The translations under genes and the position numbers were made by a program. Positions 4,957 through 16,084 of a stretch of 18,367 nucleotides of DNA are shown here, piece after piece. The DNA is from a virus, in UHGV virus genome UHGV-1667981; one strand, given 5' to 3'. Below the pieces are notes generated by a model that made no database searches, had not been told where the DNA came from, and worked only from the letters and a program-made list of their open reading frames with translations. Each line of letters begins with the position of its first letter. Position 1 is the first letter of the stretch.

Positions 4957-4971
4957 CCGTGACCAGTCACG
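4957..4971. promoter_or_regulatory. Palindrome CCGTGAC-CA-GTCACG (copy 1 of 2); candidate regulator binding site
   Basis: 14-bp core CGTGACCAGTCACG; its reverse complement CGTGACTGGTCACG recurs at 14594..14607 inside a longer 20-bp palindrome. Sits directly upstream of the SD of the 4706..4948 gene. Confidence 0.35.
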
Positions 4972-5293
4972 CTTTGAGCGCAAGTTTCAGCCTCGTGGTT
5001 GTAAGGTGGCATGACCCTTCGCCATCAAAAATGCATTCTGAAACAGGCATTTTTTGACCACATCGTGGGCAAGTAGTAGATAGCTGCTTCTGCAGCTCCT
5101 TATAGTTTTTCCTGATCAACAAACCAATGACTTCGTTCTCCGAATATGGAACTCGCCCTGGTCTACGCAATACACAAATTTCCCCCAACATACGTAACTC
5201 GTCAGGTTCTAGAATCCAGTCCCGTCTTGATGTGCCTTCCTTCTTCAACCGTTCCCTGCGTCTCCTTTGCCGTTCTGCCGGTGTCAGCGCCAT
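4967..5293 (-). CDS. Hypothetical protein (108 aa) with Arg-rich N-terminus and CPRCG...C..H putative zinc-binding cluster
   Basis: ORF track 4967..5293(-); QRRRRERLKK then CPRCGQ...SECIFDGEGSCH. No confident family assignment. Confidence 0.5.
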   Translation of the reverse strand: MALTPAERQRRRRERLKKEGTSRRDWILEPDELRMLGEICVLRRPGRVPYSENEVIGLLIRKNYKELQKQLSTTCPRCGQKMPVSECIFDGEGSCHLTTTRLKLALKA

Positions 5294-9587: not shown

Positions 9588-12500
9588 ATGACATTAAACG
9601 ATTTCTATGCGGATCGCTTTGGCAGCGATCCGTTCTCGCTAATTGAAGCAGCACGGGATGAACTAACCGAGCTGGCACAGATGGCTGGTATCAACTGGCC
9701 TGCCTGTTCCGACAACATCCAACTCAACCCTCGCGGGGGTGTTGAGCGTTACTCTTCATACAATAAAACATCTCCAGAAGCTCTCGAGAAGAGCCTCAAA
9801 GGACGCGTAGAAATTTACTCCCGGCTGGAACACAGCAAAGGGATTGATTATCCGTTCATTAACTTCGTCCATAAAGGCAGCGATGCTGGCTCATGGAGCG
9901 GTTTCTCCTTCCTGTTTTCTGAATATCGCCGTGAGCAACAGCGGAATAATGCGACCGTGGTCGCACAACCGGAAGAAGAACGGGCAAGAATAGAACGTCA
10001 GGCCGAAGCACGTCGTCGCCGTGAAGAACAAAAACGAATTAATGACCTGAAAAACAACCAAATGGACCATGAACGTTTGCTGGGATGGCTGGCATTTCAC
10101 AGCGCGTGGGAACATGCTCCTGCAGAAGACGGCTCGTGGCCATATGCGATTAAAAAAGGTATTCGTGACGTTTTTAATTCGTGTGATGTGCGTCGCGTGA
10201 CCAGTCACGACAGCGCAAAATGGAGCAGGGGGCCAACCACGTATATGGCTATCCCTCTGGCTCACCTGGACGGTCGTTACGATGGTCGTATTGTGGGTTG
10301 GCAGCGAATCGACAAACAAGGTGGAAAATACCAGACCAGCGCCGTAACCAGCGGCGATTTCGTCGGTGCCTGCTTTGTTATCGGTGAGCTAAAAGGGGCG
10401 CAAAACATCGCTGTTACAGAAGGTTTTGCTACTGGTGCATCCATCTGGCTTGCCACGAAAAAAGATAAACGCTTTGACGCTGTGGTTGTCGCTGTATCCG
10501 CTAACAACATGGTTCATGTTGTGGAACAACTGGTAAACATGTACCCGGCGGCAAAAATCACCTGCGCACTGGATAATGACAGGAAATCAGCTACAGAAGG
10601 AAAAGGGAATACCGGCCTGCGGACTGGCTATGAAATCTTATCGAAATTCAACGATGTCCGCTGCGTCTATCCAACTTTTGAAGACGATCCGCAAATGGAG
10701 TGCAGTGACTTCAACGACCTGCACAAACTACGTGGACTTCGTGAAACAGCACGTCAACTGTTTGCAACTGCAAACCGCCTGAAAACTGGCACTGATTTGC
10801 TATCTCTGACGCTCAACCGCCTGAAGACAATTAAGCGGGATAACCGTCGTACTTTTGCCAAAGAGCTGCTGAGAGCGGTGGATATTGGCATGCTAACCTG
10901 CCCGGTTCCTAACAGTCCGTCAGATTTATTTAACATGTTCTGCATCGTTCTGCGTGAAATGGGACTGGAAAATATCTATCGCGCTACGGTAAAAGACCAC
11001 ATTGCCCGTCGCCTGAATAAAAAGTGCCGTATTGCCCAGGCTCCGCGCTCTTTCAGCGAACGCATAACTGATCCCAATAAACGCCCTCAACATATCACCT
11101 ATAAGCGTTTTGAAACTTCGGTAATGACCGATGATGTCCTGAAGTACGTGCAATCACTACAGGGGATAGTCATCGTCCGTGCTGGTATGGGTTCCGGCAA
11201 ATCTACTGGATTGTTACGACCGTTAATGCATAGCTCAGAACGTGGTATCTCTGTTGCTCACCGTGTCTCCCTTATTGGTGGCCTGTGGGAAATGATGACA
11301 GAAGGAAAAGGTGTAAAAGCCGATATCCTGCACTATCAGGACCCTGGCTATCAGGAAATGGCTCCATACGCCAGTAAACTGACCATCTGCATAAACTCGA
11401 TTGTTAAAAACTGCTGGCAACCGTTGATGCGCCAGCACGACTATTTTGGCTTTGACGAGGCCACGCAAGGGCTACGTGCCGTTCTTTCCGGTCGGGCTAT
11501 GGAAAACCCGGTTGCTGTATTCAATACGCTAATTGACGCGCTGGCCAGAACGGAACAACACCCAATCATGGTGGATGCTGATGCGAACGATCTACTGGTT
11601 GACCTGGCTGAACTGGCTATGAAACGCCGTGAAGAACTAGGTTTACCGGCATGGCTGCAGATCCACGTAATTGAATTACCTGTTGATGTTTGCAACCGCG
11701 AAACAGGTGAGCCAATCCGGGTTTTTTATACAGAAAAAGATCGCATCATGACCGAGGTGGTGAAAGCTGTATCGGATGGCGAAAAAATCATGTTGGCCAC
11801 CGACAGCTCCACCTTTGCAGAAGATGTGACAGCCACCCTGAGAATGCATTTTCCTGGTAAGAAATTTCTGTGTGTAAACCAGAAAAACAAACCAGAGCCA
11901 GAAGTTGAAGCATTTACCAATCAACCGAAAAAGATGGTCAAAAAATACGACGGCCTGATTTATAGCCCGTCTATTTCATCCGGCGTGTCGATTGAGCAAA
12001 AACATTTTGACCGTCATTTCGGCATGTTCTGTGGTGAAGTTGTACCCAGCGACGCAGTGCAAATGCTACGCCGCGACCGTACAGCAAAAGAATTTATTAT
12101 CGGCTTTGATAAAGCTCGTGCAAAACGTGAAACTGACCCGCAAAAAATAGAACGAGCATTCGCCCAGGCATTGCTTGCTACCGCAGGTATGAACGGTGAA
12201 CTTACGGATGTCGTTTTCGATGGCGACCGTATATCAATGGGGGTGGCCAATACCGACTTTACCAGGATGAAAATTAAAGCAGCCGCAATTGAAGCGACTG
12301 CGCGTAACGACTACGCCAGCAACATGATCTGCATCATGCACAGCGACGGTTATAAGGTATCACCGCTGGCCACCGATTATGCTGCGAATGATATCGGTAA
12401 AGATCTGCGTAAAGAAGCGCGGGATATTGTGTGGGAACAGACACTGGATCTGCACCTCAATACAGAAACTCCACAAGAATCAGAGCGTGAAGAACTGCTA

Positions 12501-13583
12501 AAAAAACGCGCGCTGACGCTTGAAGAACAGGCAAAACTTGTCCGCTGGGATATTGAAAACGAACTGAAACTACCGGTTGAAGAAGGCACGCTGAAATTCT
12601 ATTTCGATGGTGCTCGAGACAAAGTTCGCCGCTATGAAACAATGCTTTTAGATGAGGTAACAGCTCGTCGTTACGACCGGGAAGAAGCAGCCATCAATTT
12701 TACCTACGCATACCGTCAGGCGGGACAGTGGCAATATTTTGTAGTGACCGCGATGACTCGCGAGCAGGCTGATGATGTCTTTAAAACTAAATTCCCTGGA
12801 ATAATCGATCACAAGGTAAAAGCTACTCCTACTGTTGAAGTCGGGGCGCGCGGTTTCTATGCGCTTAAATCAGCAACTCTCCGGCAGTACTTTATCGACT
12901 GCGGTATCAACCCTGAAACTATGACCGGCGAGGCGACTCAGGAGCGTCTCAAATTCGCTCGAGATAACCTCATGACAGCCGAACGCCGTGACCTGTTGAA
13001 TAACGTTCTGCACATTGGTGGTTTTATGACGCCAAAAGGGAAGCCTAAAGTGCCGGAAGCGTTGTTTAAAAACATTTGCGACTCTCTTGGCCTTAAAACA
13101 GGTAAACGTCGCGGCAGAGACGGCGATAAGCGTCCAACCTTGCGTTTTGTTGAGCCCGAATCAGCGGCATTTATGCTGGATATTCTTGTTCAGCGTCAGA
13201 AAGATGGCCTAACCCTAAAAACGCGTAAAGCCGAGAAGACAGCCATCGAAATGGATCGCGATTTGGATCTCAATATATATATGGATGATAAAACGCGATC
13301 CACAAACGAGCAGGTTCAAAACGCCCCTCATTCAGTAATTTCTGAGGCTTTGGCCGTATTGCCGGTGGCTGTTCCTGAGTCCTGGGCGATGAGTGCGCTT
13401 TCCGGTGAGGAGCTGGCCACTATGTCATCATGGTCATCAACCAGCATAGCTATGACGTTTGCATCTCTGTACCTCACAGAGTTCATGGATCACTTGTCCA
13501 GCAATGAACTGCGGCGGTTACGAGAATACATTACCGGGAATAGCTCATGCAGCTACGAAGAGCAGGGCGCTTTCTATGGGTAA
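9588..13583 (+). CDS. repA: Multifunctional replication protein, primase-helicase (N15 RepA-type, 1331 aa)
   Basis: ORF 9588..13583(+). TOPRIM-like primase signature (AVTEGFATGASIW ... CALDNDRKS) in the N-terminal third; Walker A RAGMGSGKSTG and Walker B-like FGFDEATQG in the middle. Size and architecture match N15 RepA (about 1300 aa) as recalled. Confidence 0.9.
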   Translation: MTLNDFYADRFGSDPFSLIEAARDELTELAQMAGINWPACSDNIQLNPRGGVERYSSYNKTSPEALEKSLKGRVEIYSRLEHSKGIDYPFINFVHKGSDAGSWSGFSFLFSEYRREQQRNNATVVAQPEEERARIERQAEARRRREEQKRINDLKNNQMDHERLLGWLAFHSAWEHAPAEDGSWPYAIKKGIRDVFNSCDVRRVTSHDSAKWSRGPTTYMAIPLAHLDGRYDGRIVGWQRIDKQGGKYQTSAVTSGDFVGACFVIGELKGAQNIAVTEGFATGASIWLATKKDKRFDAVVVAVSANNMVHVVEQLVNMYPAAKITCALDNDRKSATEGKGNTGLRTGYEILSKFNDVRCVYPTFEDDPQMECSDFNDLHKLRGLRETARQLFATANRLKTGTDLLSLTLNRLKTIKRDNRRTFAKELLRAVDIGMLTCPVPNSPSDLFNMFCIVLREMGLENIYRATVKDHIARRLNKKCRIAQAPRSFSERITDPNKRPQHITYKRFETSVMTDDVLKYVQSLQGIVIVRAGMGSGKSTGLLRPLMHSSERGISVAHRVSLIGGLWEMMTEGKGVKADILHYQDPGYQEMAPYASKLTICINSIVKNCWQPLMRQHDYFGFDEATQGLRAVLSGRAMENPVAVFNTLIDALARTEQHPIMVDADANDLLVDLAELAMKRREELGLPAWLQIHVIELPVDVCNRETGEPIRVFYTEKDRIMTEVVKAVSDGEKIMLATDSSTFAEDVTATLRMHFPGKKFLCVNQKNKPEPEVEAFTNQPKKMVKKYDGLIYSPSISSGVSIEQKHFDRHFGMFCGEVVPSDAVQMLRRDRTAKEFIIGFDKARAKRETDPQKIERAFAQALLATAGMNGELTDVVFDGDRISMGVANTDFTRMKIKAAAIEATARNDYASNMICIMHSDGYKVSPLATDYAANDIGKDLRKEARDIVWEQTLDLHLNTETPQESEREELLKKRALTLEEQAKLVRWDIENELKLPVEEGTLKFYFDGARDKVRRYETMLLDEVTARRYDREEAAINFTYAYRQAGQWQYFVVTAMTREQADDVFKTKFPGIIDHKVKATPTVEVGARGFYALKSATLRQYFIDCGINPETMTGEATQERLKFARDNLMTAERRDLLNNVLHIGGFMTPKGKPKVPEALFKNICDSLGLKTGKRRGRDGDKRPTLRFVEPESAAFMLDILVQRQKDGLTLKTRKAEKTAIEMDRDLDLNIYMDDKTRSTNEQVQNAPHSVISEALAVLPVAVPESWAMSALSGEELATMSSWSSTSIAMTFASLYLTEFMDHLSSNELRRLREYITGNSSCSYEEQGAFYG
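9950..9965. repeat. Palindrome TGCGACC-GT-GGTCGCA (copy 3 of 3), inside repA coding sequence
   Basis: Shares the 16-bp core gcgaccgtggtcgcac (9951..9966) with the 18-mer at 3128..3145; 7-bp inverted arms here, because the flanking base is A rather than G. Encodes ATVVAQ in the repA frame, the same peptide the copy at 7507..7524 encodes in the 7481..7801 ORF. Confidence 0.5.
13252..13302. other. Candidate internal replication origin element within the 3' part of repA: 9-bp inverted repeat flanking an (AT)n tract with three GATC sites
   Basis: tggatcgcg (13252..13260) and cgcgatcca (13294..13302) flank atttggatctcaatatatatatggatgataaaa. GATC at 13254, 13266 and 13297. Confidence 0.35.
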
Positions 13584-14098: not shown

Positions 14099-14302
14099 AA
14101 ATGGATGTTCAATTATACAAATACGAATCCCCTTTGGTTGACATCCTCCACGCCCTTCATGGCGTGGACTCCTGCCACGCTCTGGCAGCGCCTGAACCGT
14201 TTGTGGTTCGTTCCGCTTTACCGGTCTGAAGTAGCAAATGTATTGTTATGGTGTATAAATACTCTTTCTTTTCAATAGAAAGCCAAAAGAAGGAGTATTT
14301 AT

Positions 14303-14530
14303 ATGGTGAACTGCAACAAAAATGAAGAAACTCGCCTGGTTTGGACGGTAGTAATCGGAGATAAAAAGGGCGGTGAAGAGCCTCATTTTGATTATTCTGT
14401 GGCTTTGCAGGCTCTCATCCTTGAAGCGCAGATATACCAACAAGAGATGCAGAAGAACCCTCAACTGGAACCTCGACCAATTGGCCTATTCTGCGAGCGA
14501 GTATCAGCGGCTGAACTCCCTGATATCTGA
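14303..14530 (+). CDS. Hypothetical small protein (75 aa)
   Basis: ORF track 14303..14530(+); AGGAG SD 7 nt upstream. No recognisable domain. Confidence 0.5.
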   Translation: MVNCNKNEETRLVWTVVIGDKKGGEEPHFDYSVALQALILEAQIYQQEMQKNPQLEPRPIGLFCERVSAAELPDI

Positions 14531-14591
14531 TGCCCTCCAACAGCTGATCAGGTTCTGATCAGTTAGTAAAGCAAACTATAAAAACACCTGT

Positions 14592-14611
14592 CCCCGTGAC
14601 TGGTCACGGGG
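14592..14611. promoter_or_regulatory. 20-bp perfect palindrome CCCCGTGAC-TG-GTCACGGGG (copy 2 of the GTGAC-N2-GTCAC motif)
   Basis: 9-bp inverted arms; core matches the reverse complement of the site at 4958..4971. Lies at the entry to the structured region upstream of the antirepressor operon. Confidence 0.4.
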
Positions 14612-14637
14612 TAAAATGTCTTTTCAAATTATTGACG

Positions 14638-14746
14638 TGTGCGTCGTTTTGACGGTAAAGTTACTTCGCTGCGGTAAATCCCGTAGCCGGGACTCTCAAC
14701 CCCGAAATCCGAACGACGCACAACACGCGCCAGCGTGTTTTTTTGT
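14638..14746 (+). ncRNA. Candidate structured small RNA or leader (c4/CA-RNA-like) ending in an intrinsic terminator
   Basis: Long-range stem gtgcgtcgtt (14640..14649) pairs with aacgacgcac (14712..14721), enclosing about 60 nt. Followed by terminator hairpin aacacgc-gcca-gcgtgtt plus T-run (14722..14746). No credible coding ORF here. Identity as a regulatory RNA is inferred from position and structure only. Confidence 0.35.
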
Positions 14747-14844
14747 GTGTATGAGCCTGCGCATATCCGAATTATGGTGGCTCAGGTGGGGCAGCCGAAA
14801 GGCTGGCCGGTGTCGTTTGGGCCGGTGTTGAGAACCCCGCTTGG

Positions 14845-14890
14845 GCTACCACCCCATAGAGATTCTCAACTCTGGTGGTAGCACTGTTTT
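14845..14890 (+). terminator. Attenuator-like hairpin (9-bp stem GCTACCACC/GGTGGTAGC, 20-nt loop) followed by TTTT, just upstream of the antirepressor operon SD
   Basis: Loop contains TTCTCAAC, which is complementary to GTTGAGAA at 14827..14834 and is also repeated (CTCTCAAC) at 14693..14700. T-run starts 4 nt after the stem. Confidence 0.35.
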
Positions 14891-14910
14891 ACCAAACAAG
14901 AGTGCATACC

Positions 14911-15075
14911 ATGTTCAAATTCAAATTTGCGGCAGTCGTTCGCACAGACAAAAAGTCACACATCCATCATCTTTCCACCATCGCGTCATCTGAACGGGAA
15001 GCTCGTCGCCAGTTCGCCAGCCGGTTTGTCCTGGTATTGTCTGCCCGTATTCCGGTGCGCGAGGTGGCTGCATGA
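14911..15075 (+). CDS. Small protein (54 aa), first gene of the antirepressor operon; possibly Icd-like
   Basis: ORF 14875..15075(+); ATG 14911 preceded by AAGAG with 8-nt spacer. Stop overlaps the next gene's start (ATGA). Icd-like role is a guess from operon position. Confidence 0.45.
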   Translation: MFKFKFAAVVRTDKKSHIHHLSTIASSEREARRQFASRFVLVLSARIPVREVAA

Positions 15076-15305
15076 ATCAGGTAAAAATGAACACTGTTGG
15101 CCTGCTGGAATCGTTGGATGAACGTCTGGCTCAGGTCTATGCGCTTGTGTCATCCGCCCATCGTACAGTCTCCAGCTGTGAGGCGTCGATTTATCTCTCA
15201 GAAGCCGGGAAGCTCCTTCAAATTGCGTGTGAGTTGACACACAAAGCACAGGGGTATTCAGCATCTCTCTCGTCGCAATTGCAGCACAATAAGGAGGCCA
15301 AATGA
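15072..15305 (+). CDS. Hypothetical protein (77 aa), second gene of the antirepressor operon
   Basis: ORF track 15072..15305(+); GAGGTGG SD upstream; ATGA overlaps at both ends indicate translational coupling. Confidence 0.55.
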   Translation: MNQVKMNTVGLLESLDERLAQVYALVSSAHRTVSSCEASIYLSEAGKLLQIACELTHKAQGYSASLSSQLQHNKEAK

Positions 15306-16084
15306 GCGCGTTAGCTGTATTTTCGTTTCAGGAAGAGCATCAGGTTCGTGTAGTGATGATTAACGGCGATCCGTGGTTTGTAGCGGCTGATGTTTGTAAT
15401 GCCATCGGGATTATCAATCATCGTGATGCTGTTGGTAAGTTGGATGAAGACGAAAAGGGGGTCGGTTCAACAGACACCCTTGGAGGTAAACAGGGAGTGA
15501 CAATTATTAACGAATCCGGCCTCTATACCCTAATCCTCCGCTGCCGTGACGCGGTGAAGCAAGGCACAACAGCTTGGCGGTTTCGCAAATGGGTAACGAA
15601 CGAAGTCTTGCCCTCTATTCGCAAAAATGGAGAGTACGTTTACGTCGAGCCAGAGCCAATGCGAGCAGCAGAGCCGTTGAACTGGAGGCAGAAAGAGTAT
15701 CTGCGAGGGCTGATTAACGATATTGCACAAAGTTTTCAATACCGAAATGCCTGGATTAGCGGTGTATGGTTGGCTTTGCGTCGGGCGTGTCGTAATCCAT
15801 CCCCGAACCCCATAACTGTTGATGATTTGCCAGCAATTACGGCAGAACTGCGCCGGATTTTGACGGCTGCTGAGTCGGCATTGGGGAACATGCGCACGTA
15901 TGAACGAGAGTTGTTGCGTGATGTTGTTCGTGGTGGTAGGCGGAGTATGTCGTGTGGTGATTTGCCCATCACCGATATCAACTCTGATCTGGAAAAGGCG
16001 TTACCCGCGCATTTTGAACTGGCAGTTCAAAAACTTGAGCAGTTGTCCGCGCAGCTAAAGCCAGCAGAAATCACCAATAAATAG
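15302..16084 (+). CDS. Prophage antirepressor with Bro-N/AntA-type N-terminal domain
   Basis: ORF 15302..16084(+), 260 aa; AAGGAGG SD. N-terminal motifs (GDPWFVAADVCNAIGI, LGGKQGVTIINESGLYTLILRC, WRFRKWVTNEVLPSIRKNGEY) match the Bro-N/AntA antirepressor domain as recalled. Confidence 0.8.
   Translation: MSALAVFSFQEEHQVRVVMINGDPWFVAADVCNAIGIINHRDAVGKLDEDEKGVGSTDTLGGKQGVTIINESGLYTLILRCRDAVKQGTTAWRFRKWVTNEVLPSIRKNGEYVYVEPEPMRAAEPLNWRQKEYLRGLINDIAQSFQYRNAWISGVWLALRRACRNPSPNPITVDDLPAITAELRRILTAAESALGNMRTYERELLRDVVRGGRRSMSCGDLPITDINSDLEKALPAHFELAVQKLEQLSAQLKPAEITNK

Follow-up and report, generated by a model that had tools for sequence, protein, structure and literature searches.

The described loci closest to the one considered here are (i) immI of P1, (ii) immA of N15, (iii) the IsrK/STnc1160 locus of Salmonella Gifsy-1, and (iv) the CI RNA locus of P4. 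The 5′ end of the P1 c4 RNA is cut by RNase P, and the N15 CA RNA reportedly acts through premature transcription termination. The P4 CI RNA arises by processing of its target operon's leader and has complementary sites on either side; the genes under its control serve replication and do not encode an antirepressor. P1 immI is laid out in the order promoter, a1, b1, c4 RNA, a2, b2, icd, and ant (NC_005856), and the a and b labels used below follow this GenBank nomenclature. The APSE records carry the two labels swapped. For N15, the title of the paper by Ravin, Svarchevsky & Deho (1999, Mol Microbiol 34:980; cited in PMC4488713) states that the antirepressor is controlled by a small processed RNA. 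In Gifsy-1, a short terminated isrK leader is complementary to downstream RNA and is accompanied by an ~80-nt processed RNA and a translationally coupled antirepressor; activation of antirepressor translation by the short RNA in trans, >100-fold, is demonstrated there, whereas a repressor role of the c4-like RNA is not established (Hershko-Shalev et al. 2016, PMC4825925). As summarized in the same paper, IsrK has a structural homologue in the P4 seqA RNA, and the P4 CI RNA acts by premature transcription termination (PMC4825925).

The DNA analyzed, referred to below as the window, is an 18,367-nt stretch of UHGV virus genome UHGV-1667981. It derives from an N15-like telomere phage-plasmid, with 98.7% identity to phage YDC107_1 and ~80% to N15 over the control region. 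The segment ahead of its antirepressor genes is very probably the control region of a secondary-immunity (anti-immunity) operon, built like P1 immI and N15 immA (Table 1). The switch type is one already known, and no new mechanism class is implied. The first-pass annotation had proposed c4/CA-RNA-like antisense control before a translationally coupled antirepressor operon, a proposal upheld by matches to Rfam C4 and isrK, orthology with N15, and the identities of the genes. These gene identities and Rfam memberships are obtained directly, as are the folds, the three-way complementarity with its co-variation, and the fact that b2 sits at the ribosome-binding site.

Table 1. Features of the putative control region and its surroundings (positions in the window).
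Feature	Position	Strand	Details
repA	9588-13583		
Near-palindrome CCCCGTGACTGGTCACGGGG	14592-14611	.	9+2+9; 21 bp upstream of -35
ORF, 71 aa	14616-14831		
Probable P1 immI/N15 immA-type control region	14632-14910	+	
Sigma-70 promoter (Pa-like)	14632-14661	+	TTGACG / 18-bp spacer / TAAAGT
IsrK/c4-a1b1-type leader RNA	14668-14746	+	Rfam isrK
Leader hairpin 1	14668-14687	+	
Leader hairpin 2	14688-14704	+	followed by single-stranded linker and intrinsic terminator
a1 target/decoy CUCUCAAC	14693-14700	+	loop of leader hairpin 2; 7 bp with a′
b1 target/decoy CCGAACGAC	14709-14717	+	single-stranded linker immediately 5′ of terminator
Intrinsic terminator	14722-14746	+	stem-loop 14722-14739; 7-bp stem, GCCA loop, T7
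ORF, 48 aa	14735-14881		
c4-family antisense RNA gene, N15 CA RNA orthologue	14770-14856	+	Rfam C4
c4 RNA hairpin 1	14792-14805	+	within 16-17-bp closing stem of the c4 fold
c4 RNA hairpin 2	14806-14826	+	within 16-17-bp closing stem of the c4 fold
b′ element UGUCGUUUGGG	14811-14821	+	loop of c4 hairpin 2; pairs with b1, b2
a′ element GUUGAGAA	14827-14834	+	single-stranded c4 junction; pairs with a1, a2
a2-presenting hairpin GCUACCACC / GGUGGUAGC	14845-14882	+	arms 14845-14853 / 14874-14882, 9/9
a2 target UUCUCAAC	14863-14870	+	8 bp with a′; ~45 nt upstream of icd ATG
b2 target CCAAAC	14892-14897	+	6 bp with c4 loop; abuts icd Shine-Dalgarno AAGAG (14898-14902)
icd-like gene, 54 aa, first cistron	14911-15075	+	NCBIfam NF033153 phage_ICD_like
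antA-like gene, 77 aa	15072-15305	+	start overlaps icd stop (ATGA)
antB-like gene, 260 aa	15302-16084	+	Bro-N domain; start overlaps antA stop
ORF, 639 aa	16258-18177		convergent; at protelomerase position

The regulated operon comprises three coupled cistrons. The icd product scores 67 bits against its NCBIfam model (cut-off 25), its ATG lies at 14911, and the gene is annotated in phiKO2, PY54, and plasmid relatives. The antB product matches Pfam Bro-N with an E value of 1.6e-20 and shares 74% identity with N15 gp30, and Gp27 of phiKO2 is annotated as AntB-similar; identity of the antA product to N15 gp31 is only 59%, and in phiKO2 it is Gp28 that carries an annotation of similarity to N15 AntA. 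With three coupled homologues flanked by the repA block on one side and the protelomerase gene on the other, icd-antA-antB has the membership of the N15 immA operon. The locus is orthologous to N15 cA/immA and syntenic with it in the order repA … leader, icd, antA, antB, protelomerase, with ~80% DNA identity in the leader, and the promoter, isrK-like leader, terminator, C4 RNA, and all three cistrons are common to both. The antirepressors of P1 are Ant1/2, unlike AntA/AntB here, and Gifsy-1 lacks icd, its first cistron being a 45-codon ORF that overlaps the c4-like RNA (PMC4825925).

It is highly improbable that the region upstream of icd encodes a small repressor protein, even though it contains the 71- and 48-aa ORFs and CDSs are annotated on the homologous stretch in YDC107_1, N15 (gene 32 and the old “cA secondary immunity repressor” CDS), phiKO2, KpLi5, and an E. 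coli plasmid, among them hypothetical, “Icd-like,” and “ash family” entries. Neither these two ORFs nor their annotated counterparts have a match in Pfam or NCBIfam, and the leader as a protein-coding sequence is rejected because of this absence. The annotated frames and extents vary between phages, the leader region of relatives has 1-2-nt indels, and sequence change tracks base-pairing rather than codons. The old N15 cA CDS itself begins within the c4 region. The earlier view that no credible ORF precedes icd agrees with the absence of family matches and with the indels.

The leader RNA matches Rfam isrK (RF01394) over 14668-14743 with 54.9 bits against a threshold of 50, the 3′ intrinsic terminator included, and when folded alone (MFE -26.7 kcal/mol, z -3.4) it adopts the same structure as the model. 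The c4-a1b1 model (RF03163) remains below threshold in the window, with 25.1 vs 46.7 bits at 14655-14708; both of its hairpins align, and the missing score lies in loop and flank sequences. Four Klebsiella relatives (46.8-49.1 bits) and P1 pass that threshold. The P1 leader thus reverses the situation of the window, with c4-a1b1 above (51 bits) and isrK below (35 bits) as opposed to 25 and 55, respectively. The arrangement that defines c4-a1b1 function, with a1 in a loop and b1 downstream, is present in the window by virtue of complementarity. Across the 12 N15-like leaders that make up the comparative alignment, pairing is complete (100%) in both leader hairpin 1 and the terminator, with one compensatory pair. 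The stem-loop with its T-run, recognized as a canonical terminator from the outset, is the only terminator-like site called by a scan of 14300-15300; it is kept, invariant or compensated, in 12/12 relatives, and the N15 and phiKO2 records annotate it as putative rho-independent.

The antisense RNA gene scores 71.8 bits with Rfam C4 (RF01695; threshold 45, E 1e-12), full-length over model positions 1-87; the corresponding score is 68.8 bits in P1 and 78.8 bits in N15, where isrK scores 62.4 bits. Together, isrK and C4 occur in 11/11 N15-like relatives tested and also in PY54 and APSE-3. Placed by register with the annotated 77-nt P1 c4 RNA, the predicted mature RNA spans 14776-14853 (78 nt) and is probably excised from a read-through transcript. 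Its fold (MFE -48.7 kcal/mol, z -4.9) is identical to that of the model, and among the 12 relatives 97% of cells are paired, with five compensatory pairs; the closing stem and hairpin 2 are paired throughout (100%), and hairpin 1 is 98% paired, three of its five pairs being compensatory. Conservation extends to the acceptor-like form of the closing stem, to the sequence AAUUAU that flanks the RNA on its 5′ side and is invariant, and to the ACC tail at the 3′ end, which points to excision as a separate RNA.

At the 3′ end of this RNA lies a hairpin that had been taken for a second terminator. Its 9/9 stem stands, as does the octamer TTCTCAAC in its loop, but its T-run is missing in 10/11 relatives, the scan makes no terminator call there, and a T-rich tail accompanies just 14/90 hairpins at c4 loci; a terminator at this position is therefore rejected in favor of a family-wide target-presenting hairpin. 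The arrangement recurs at 89/96 distinct c4 loci vs 173/960 shuffled-flank controls. In the 12 relatives, the stem is 100% paired, with two compensatory pairs in phiKO2. The 5′ arm of this hairpin doubles as the 3′ arm in the c4 closing stem, and the two folds are therefore mutually exclusive. P1/P7 c4 share an a2 hairpin that uses the c4 3′ arm, as well as a1 in a hairpin loop and a U-rich terminator-like hairpin.

Two complementary triples link these RNAs, namely a′ (14827-34) with a1 (14693-700) and a2 (14863-70), and b′ (14811-21) with b1 (14709-17) and b2 (14892-97). The first triple had been noted as an octamer TTCTCAAC at 14863-14870, its complement GTTGAGAA at 14827-14834, and a repeat, CTCTCAAC, at 14693-14700; all three are confirmed at these positions and co-vary, and the complement corresponds to a′ of the P1 annotation. 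TCTCAAC occurs only three times in the 18.4-kb window, both strands counted, at the two targets and on the strand opposite the RNA gene, and a 6-mer complementary to the c4 loop follows each target after 11-21 nt. The octamer triple is well beyond chance because TCTCAAC is confined to these three sites and because the sites co-vary in relatives. The second triple, which adjoins the ribosome-binding site, was missed by the first-pass annotation, which also did not place the RNA gene. A search for further c4 RNA targets across the window gave none that is convincing.

Both triples co-vary across the 12 leaders. The covariation score is 0.397 for a′/a1 plus b′/b1 (0.160 shuffled) and 0.435 for a′/a2 plus b′/b2 (0.144 shuffled; slid controls ≤0.19), and neither is reached in 500 shuffles (0/500 each). 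The internal folds are likewise conserved, in that 97.2% of their cells are paired and 14 are doubly changed, vs a shuffle mean of 4.2 (0/500). The folding and covariance check proposed at the outset comes out in favor of both the c4 folds and the target pairings. An alignment-free comparison, in which the RNA of each of 131 distinct c4 loci was paired with its own flanks and with those of the other loci, shows that these RNAs bind their own flanks better (cognate/non-cognate duplexes of -9.3/-6.6, -9.7/-7.5, -12.1/-7.2, and -11.8/-8.4 kcal/mol).

The individual pairings differ in strength. Among relatives, 4/7 pairs of a′-a1 are changed on both sides, and four pairs of a′-a2 are doubly changed in 5-6/12 sequences, with zero unpaired cells in those four; the corresponding window duplexes (-9.3 and -10.2 kcal/mol) are equalled by no flank from loci with different elements. 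The nine pairs between b1 and the c4 loop, one of them G-U, give -15.0 kcal/mol in the window, and b1 duplexes among the 12 leaders average -12.6 for cognate vs -8.0 kcal/mol for non-cognate combinations. For b′-b2, half of the pairs (3/6) are compensatory, and the window duplex alone is weak, at -8.4 kcal/mol; of the flanks taken from loci whose loop element differs, 52% bind the loop just as well. With only 6 bp at this energy, occlusion of the ribosome-binding site would depend on a weak contact plus a2. In P1, b2 is 8 nt long and overlaps the Shine-Dalgarno sequence, whereas that of the window is shorter and abuts it.

Recognition sequences diverge among these loci. The a and b sequences of P1 are unlike those of the window. 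N15 has the identical a element (GUUGAGAA, with targets CUCUCAAC and UUCUCAAC) but a different b loop, UUUCUUCUUGU in place of GUCGUUUGG, with b1 and b2 changed in step; one of the two recognition elements is therefore predicted to be common to both phages. The b element of the window phage is that of Klebsiella and E. coli relatives; the Klebsiella plasmid CP033624, for example, has an identical b′ but another a′.

The promoter is the sole plus-strand promoter-like site in a scan of 14300-15300, and both hexamers are invariant or nearly invariant in the 12 relatives. The end of the -10 lies 7 nt from leader hairpin 1, a distance equal to that of the annotated P1 promoter P1c4, and we infer a transcription start near 14668. 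P1 has a C1 operator at its promoter, whereas the window has a different palindrome upstream. This 20-bp palindrome, first described as part of the RNA structure, is present at 14592-14611 but is a dispersed DNA-level site outside that structure. Its core (C21-G37) is invariant in the 12 relatives, a 14-16-bp core is found again in the window at 4957-4972 and 10195-10210, and N15 has the core at three equivalent places. Five matches to the core are reached in 0/200 shuffles. Presumably, the palindrome is a SopB-type centromere or binding site. Its 7+2+7 geometry agrees with that of the F sopC site TGGGACCACGGTCCCA (PMC3597684).

A long-range stem had also been proposed. The complementarity exists, being 11/11 between 14638-14648 and 14712-14722, but it is rejected as an RNA structure because its 5′ arm sits within the spacer of the promoter, ahead of where transcription likely starts, and because it lacks both co-variation and cognate preference. 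Paired cells amount to 72% vs 70% in shuffles, the covariation score is equalled by 83/500 shuffles, and cognate duplexes (-17.4 kcal/mol) are no better than non-cognate ones (-17.6 kcal/mol).

By homology with the described systems, the start site, terminator read-through, processing, and the direction of the regulatory outcome, namely repression, can be assembled into a probable sequence of events. Transcription would begin near 14668 at a constitutive-looking promoter, and the first ~79 nt would fold into two hairpins. Most transcripts would probably end at the leader terminator as a short IsrK-like RNA, with a1 exposed in the loop of a hairpin and b1 in the single-stranded linker. The terminator may thereby attenuate read-through into c4 and the operon. 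A read-through transcript would carry the c4-family RNA, probably cut to about 14776-14853, and in the mature RNA a hairpin loop would expose b′ and a single-stranded junction would expose a′. Pairing of a′/b′ with a2/b2 on operon-length transcripts would block ribosome entry at icd and expose untranslated icd RNA to premature termination. Because the antA and antB starts lie on the preceding stops and untranslated icd would terminate early, the antirepressor would be off. The a1/b1 pair would bind a′/b′ either in cis, on the unprocessed leader, or in trans, as part of the short RNA; able to engage both c4 elements, it would act as a built-in decoy that sets a threshold. The activation by IsrK in Gifsy-1 is consistent with such a decoy role.

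The predicted binding energy of the c4 RNA is -24.3 kcal/mol at a1/b1 vs -18.6 kcal/mol at a2+b2, and leader pairing could therefore dominate. This difference bears on a variant of the mechanism, possible although rather doubtful, in which the processed RNA acts on a1/b1 and a2/b2 of nascent transcripts mainly by causing premature transcription termination, whether at the leader terminator, ahead of icd, or inside it, with any translation block being secondary. The end of b1 lies 4 nt from the terminator stem, a1/b1 is the strongest predicted site in the window, and the terminator is invariant in all relatives; P4 CI RNA, as described in PMC4825925, terminates transcription via seqA and seqC. 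Yet all predicted folds contain the terminator hairpin, whether or not a1/b1 is paired, and no anti-terminator alternative is evident for the RNA to resolve. The placement of b2 against the Shine-Dalgarno sequence here, and over it in P1, argues for a translational target, and in the P1 record both a2 and b2 are entered as repression sites for icd and ant translation. This variant differs from the preferred reading solely in which step dominates.

Positive control of the IsrK type is unlikely as the main mode of action. Here, the short leader RNA (14668-14746) would in trans open an inactive fold of the long transcript and turn icd-antA-antB on, and the c4-like segment would be mainly a cis-inhibitory partner rather than an independent trans-acting repressor. 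The isrK match above threshold agrees with this, and in the predicted fold of the full-length leader a1/b1 is locked onto a′/b′ in cis (z -6.0), comparable to “structure A” of Gifsy-1. In Salmonella, IsrK in trans lifts anrP translation 114-171-fold (PMC4825925); accumulation of the short RNA, its binding to Hfq, and its activating effect in trans are known from Gifsy-1 only. The c4 position of Gifsy-1, however, also yields a stable processed RNA of ~80 nt, STnc1160 (PMC4825925). Moreover, P1 c4 is annotated as trans-acting with defined ends, the title of the N15 paper indicates the same, and the conserved stem, flank, and tail of the c4 RNA suggest a separate excised RNA in the window as well. 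Activation by the short RNA is compatible with a c4 role, and repression by the processed c4 RNA with a leader decoy, the preferred reading, combines both.

The locus might tentatively be viewed as a two-RNA toggle rather than a simple antisense repressor, with antirepressor expression decided by how much terminated leader there is relative to processed c4 RNA, although this is more doubtful than not. In such a toggle, leader a1/b1 would out-compete a2/b2 for the c4 RNA on the basis of the modelled energies, and the arm common to the a2 hairpin and the c4 stem would tie 3′ processing to exposure of the target. The independent reshuffling of a and b across telomere phage-plasmids would provide a combinatorial specificity code for anti-immunity. 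If this holds, phages with one common element could partly cross-regulate.

These results are of use chiefly for annotation. The records of YDC107_1, N15, and many telomere plasmids from Klebsiella and E. coli either leave out these RNA genes and targets or list them wrongly as small proteins. Correct labels would clear away spurious CDSs and point out the probable switch that silences the AntA/AntB antirepressor in lysogens. A table of a and b elements also predicts which telomere phage-plasmids should cross-repress each other’s anti-immunity operons.

The region preceding the icd-antA-antB antirepressor operon is orthologous to the CA RNA system of N15 and belongs to the Rfam C4 family, and its leader is an isrK member. 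Control of the c4/CA-RNA type ahead of a translationally coupled antirepressor operon had been proposed in the first-pass annotation, and it is borne out by above-threshold Rfam matches to both C4 and isrK, by orthology with N15, and by the layout of P1 immI. The Rfam target motif c4-a1b1, at 14655-14708, scores below its threshold (25.1 vs 46.7). Folded by themselves, 14776-14853 and 14668-14746 adopt the exact model structures (z-scores -4.9 and -3.4, respectively). By register with the ends of P1 c4, the mature c4-type RNA would span 14776-14853. Besides N15 itself, PY54, and APSE-3, nine other N15-like phages or plasmids carry the same isrK and C4 pair, and both RNAs are already marked in the APSE GenBank records.

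The window belongs to an N15-like linear phage-plasmid (Ravinvirus). Over 14400-15400, it shares 98.7% identity with Escherichia phage YDC107_1, and identity to N15 is ~80% across its annotated gene 33, terminator, gene 32, and gene 31 stretch, which the older record U63086 labels “cA: secondary immunity repressor”. The N15 gene order is kept: RepA, small ORFs, the leader region, three overlapping genes, and a convergent ORF, here of 639 aa and in the protelomerase position. The three genes, named after the phiKO2 annotation, overlap such that each start codon lies across the stop codon of the preceding gene.

Element for element, the layout equals that of P1 immI, and the elements are named by register with the richly annotated P1 record, in which the order is promoter P1c4, a1, b1, c4 RNA (77 nt), a2, b2, icd, and ant. 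In the P1 sequence, a′ forms a single-stranded junction of the c4 RNA and b′ the loop of hairpin 2 of that RNA; a1 occupies the loop of leader hairpin 2. In the only promoter-like site nearby on the + strand (TTGACG-18-TAAAGT), 7 nt separate the end of the -10 from leader hairpin 1, a distance identical to that in P1, and the canonical terminator described earlier is present at 14722-14746. The complementary octamers of the first-pass annotation exist as well (GTTGAGAA at 14827-34, CTCTCAAC at 14693-700); that annotation had found the a set but recognised neither the RNA gene nor the b set. The heptamer TCTCAAC occurs three times in the whole window, both strands counted, namely at the two target sites and on the opposite strand of GTTGAGA itself.

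Features of the window, followed by small-protein calls over the leader/c4 region of relatives (L-numbers are retrieved records with their own coordinates)
Feature	Coordinates	Strand	Sequence	Remarks
Inverted-repeat core, 14-16 bp	4957-4972; 10195-10210 (inside repA); 14594-14609		CGTGACTGGTCACG	
RepA	9588-13583			1331 aa
Promoter	14632-61	+	TTGACG-18-TAAAGT	conserved among relatives
isrK	14668-14743			Rfam, 54.9 bits (threshold 50)
a1	14693-700		CUCUCAAC	7 bp with a′
b1	14709-17		CCGAACGAC	9 bp with b′
C4 antisense RNA	14770-14856			Rfam, 71.8 bits (threshold 45)
b′	14811-21		UGUCGUUUGGG	loop of hairpin 2
a′	14827-34		GUUGAGAA	junction of c4-type RNA
a2	14863-70		UUCUCAAC	8 bp with a′
b2	14892-97		CCAAAC	6 bp with b′; adjoins icd Shine-Dalgarno AAGAG (14898-902)
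icd	14911-15075			NF033153, 67 bits
antA	15072-15305			59% identity to N15 gp31
antB	15302-16084			Bro-N domain; 74% identity to N15 gp30
CDS, YDC107_1	L002 2717-3176			
gene 32, N15	L001 2751-3041			
cA CDS, N15	L137 413-715			
gp30, phiKO2	L127 1642-1818			
“Icd-like”, KpLi5	L125 1606-1740			
“ash family protein”	L129 1564-1734			

Folding and covariance analysis across related phage-plasmids supports both the RNA folds and the two complementary sets. Among 12 aligned N15-like leaders, four versions of the a element (UUGAGAA, UUGCGAA, UUCCUAC, UUCUCAC) and at least four of the b element (GUCGUUUGG, UUCUUCUUGU, CUUCGUUU, AGCUGAUUGG) occur, with both targets altered to match in every case. Within the internal helices 97.2% of cells are paired, and 14 are doubly changed vs 4.2 in shuffles. 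Covariation is 0.397 vs 0.160 for a′/a1 plus b′/b1 and 0.435 vs 0.144 for a′/a2 plus b′/b2 (0/500 shuffles each), with slid controls for the latter at 0.19 or below. An alignment-free test on ~130 distinct c4 loci, 120 of them extracted from viral contigs by structural pattern, shows that own flanks are bound better than those of loci with different elements (mean duplex energies of -9.3/-6.6, -9.7/-7.5, -12.1/-7.2, and -11.8/-8.4 kcal/mol). For the window, a′-a2 (-10.2 kcal/mol) and a′-a1 (-9.3 kcal/mol) are equalled by no different-element flank and b′-b1 (-15.0 kcal/mol) falls within the best 2.4%, while b′-b2 (-8.4 kcal/mol), taken alone, is indistinguishable from different-element flanks of these loci. 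The a1/b1 pair is predicted to bind the c4-type RNA more tightly than does the operon target a2/b2 and, as a site (14693-14717), the top prediction in the window, excepting the opposite strand of the RNA gene.

Three further structures had been proposed for this region. The second hairpin (14845-53 / 14874-82, with TTCTCAAC in its loop) is real and conserved, with 100% pairing and two compensatory pairs in phiKO2, but its role as a terminator does not hold: it is not called by the terminator scan, its T-run is absent in relatives, and just 14/90 such hairpins across the family have a T-rich tail. The 3′ arm of the c4 closing stem doubles as the 5′ arm of this hairpin, and a2 lies in the hairpin loop, an arrangement seen in P1 and in 89/96 c4 loci vs 173/960 shuffled controls. 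Because this arm is shared, formation of the hairpin excludes the mature c4 fold, and vice versa.

The long-range stem is present as an 11/11 inverted repeat (14638-48 / 14712-22) but is unsupported as RNA structure. Its 5′ arm sits in the promoter spacer; PhiR46_1 and an E. albertii plasmid retain this arm, yet b1, within the 3′ arm, differs. Pair counts and the cognate vs non-cognate comparison are both within controls. The spacer is complementary to b1 because it repeats, at 14643-14649, the core GTCGTTT of the c4 loop element (14812-14818). Since relatives carry a similar spacer regardless of b type, this repeat looks like a relic or coincidence rather than a structure.

The near-palindrome at 14592-14611 likewise exists, but as a DNA element rather than as part of the RNA structure. 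One copy of its core lies 21 bp upstream of the operon promoter, three copies occur in N15 at equivalent positions (28549, 33236, 39268), and the 7+2+7 geometry is that of the F sopC SopB site. N15 reportedly possesses dispersed SopB centromere sites (Ravin & Lane 1999), and the palindrome is therefore probably one of these N15-type sites. A separate palindrome, CTGATCAG, occurs twice at 14544-14562, just past the stop of an upstream 75-aa ORF (14303-14530); the copies are separated by GTT, each contains a Dam GATC, and they can form an 8-bp hairpin that lacks a T-run.

The P1/N15 scheme is the best-supported reading of the mechanism. Transcription of the leader would mostly end at the terminator and produce a short, IsrK-like RNA presenting a1 and b1, while read-through would yield the c4-type RNA for excision. 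Through a′/b′ this RNA would pair with a2/b2 and block ribosome entry at icd, and antA and antB would then be silenced by coupling and polarity. In the full leader, a1/b1 is predicted to bind a′/b′ in cis (z -6.0); the free short leader RNA would serve as a decoy, a role that agrees with the >100-fold trans-activation demonstrated for Salmonella IsrK (PMC4825925). Candidates for the dominant step are the translation block, P4-like premature termination, and decoy titration. For N15 CA RNA, premature termination is the reported mode.

Small-protein calls over the leader/c4 region of relatives vary in frame and extent, and none of three translations tested has an NCBIfam match; these calls look like spurious CDS over RNA genes. 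In some E. coli and E. albertii relatives (L123 2173-2337, L129 2177-2341, L131 2429-3286), a BRO fragment of 54 aa is all that is left of antB, or a transposase takes its place, with leader, c4 RNA, icd, and antA still intact. PY54 (L128 1437-1839) has the isrK and C4 pair (59.7 and 78.3 bits) directly before icd, with neither antA nor antB behind, and its RNA switch would control just the cell-division inhibitor. Directly upstream of the operon promoter, where the window holds small ORFs, Klebsiella telomere phages and plasmids (L124 123-1249, L130 1-638, L134 116-1249) carry genes encoding colicin-like pore-forming or pesticin-like muramidase proteins, in agreement with interbacterial weapons reported on telomere phages (PMC12042878).

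The window shares its a element with N15 but differs in b, and its b element also occurs in Klebsiella and E. coli relatives. By sequence, the locus is therefore a distinct specificity combination; it does not represent a novel type of system. The c4-type assignment is correct and already known in kind, and its value is chiefly one of annotation.
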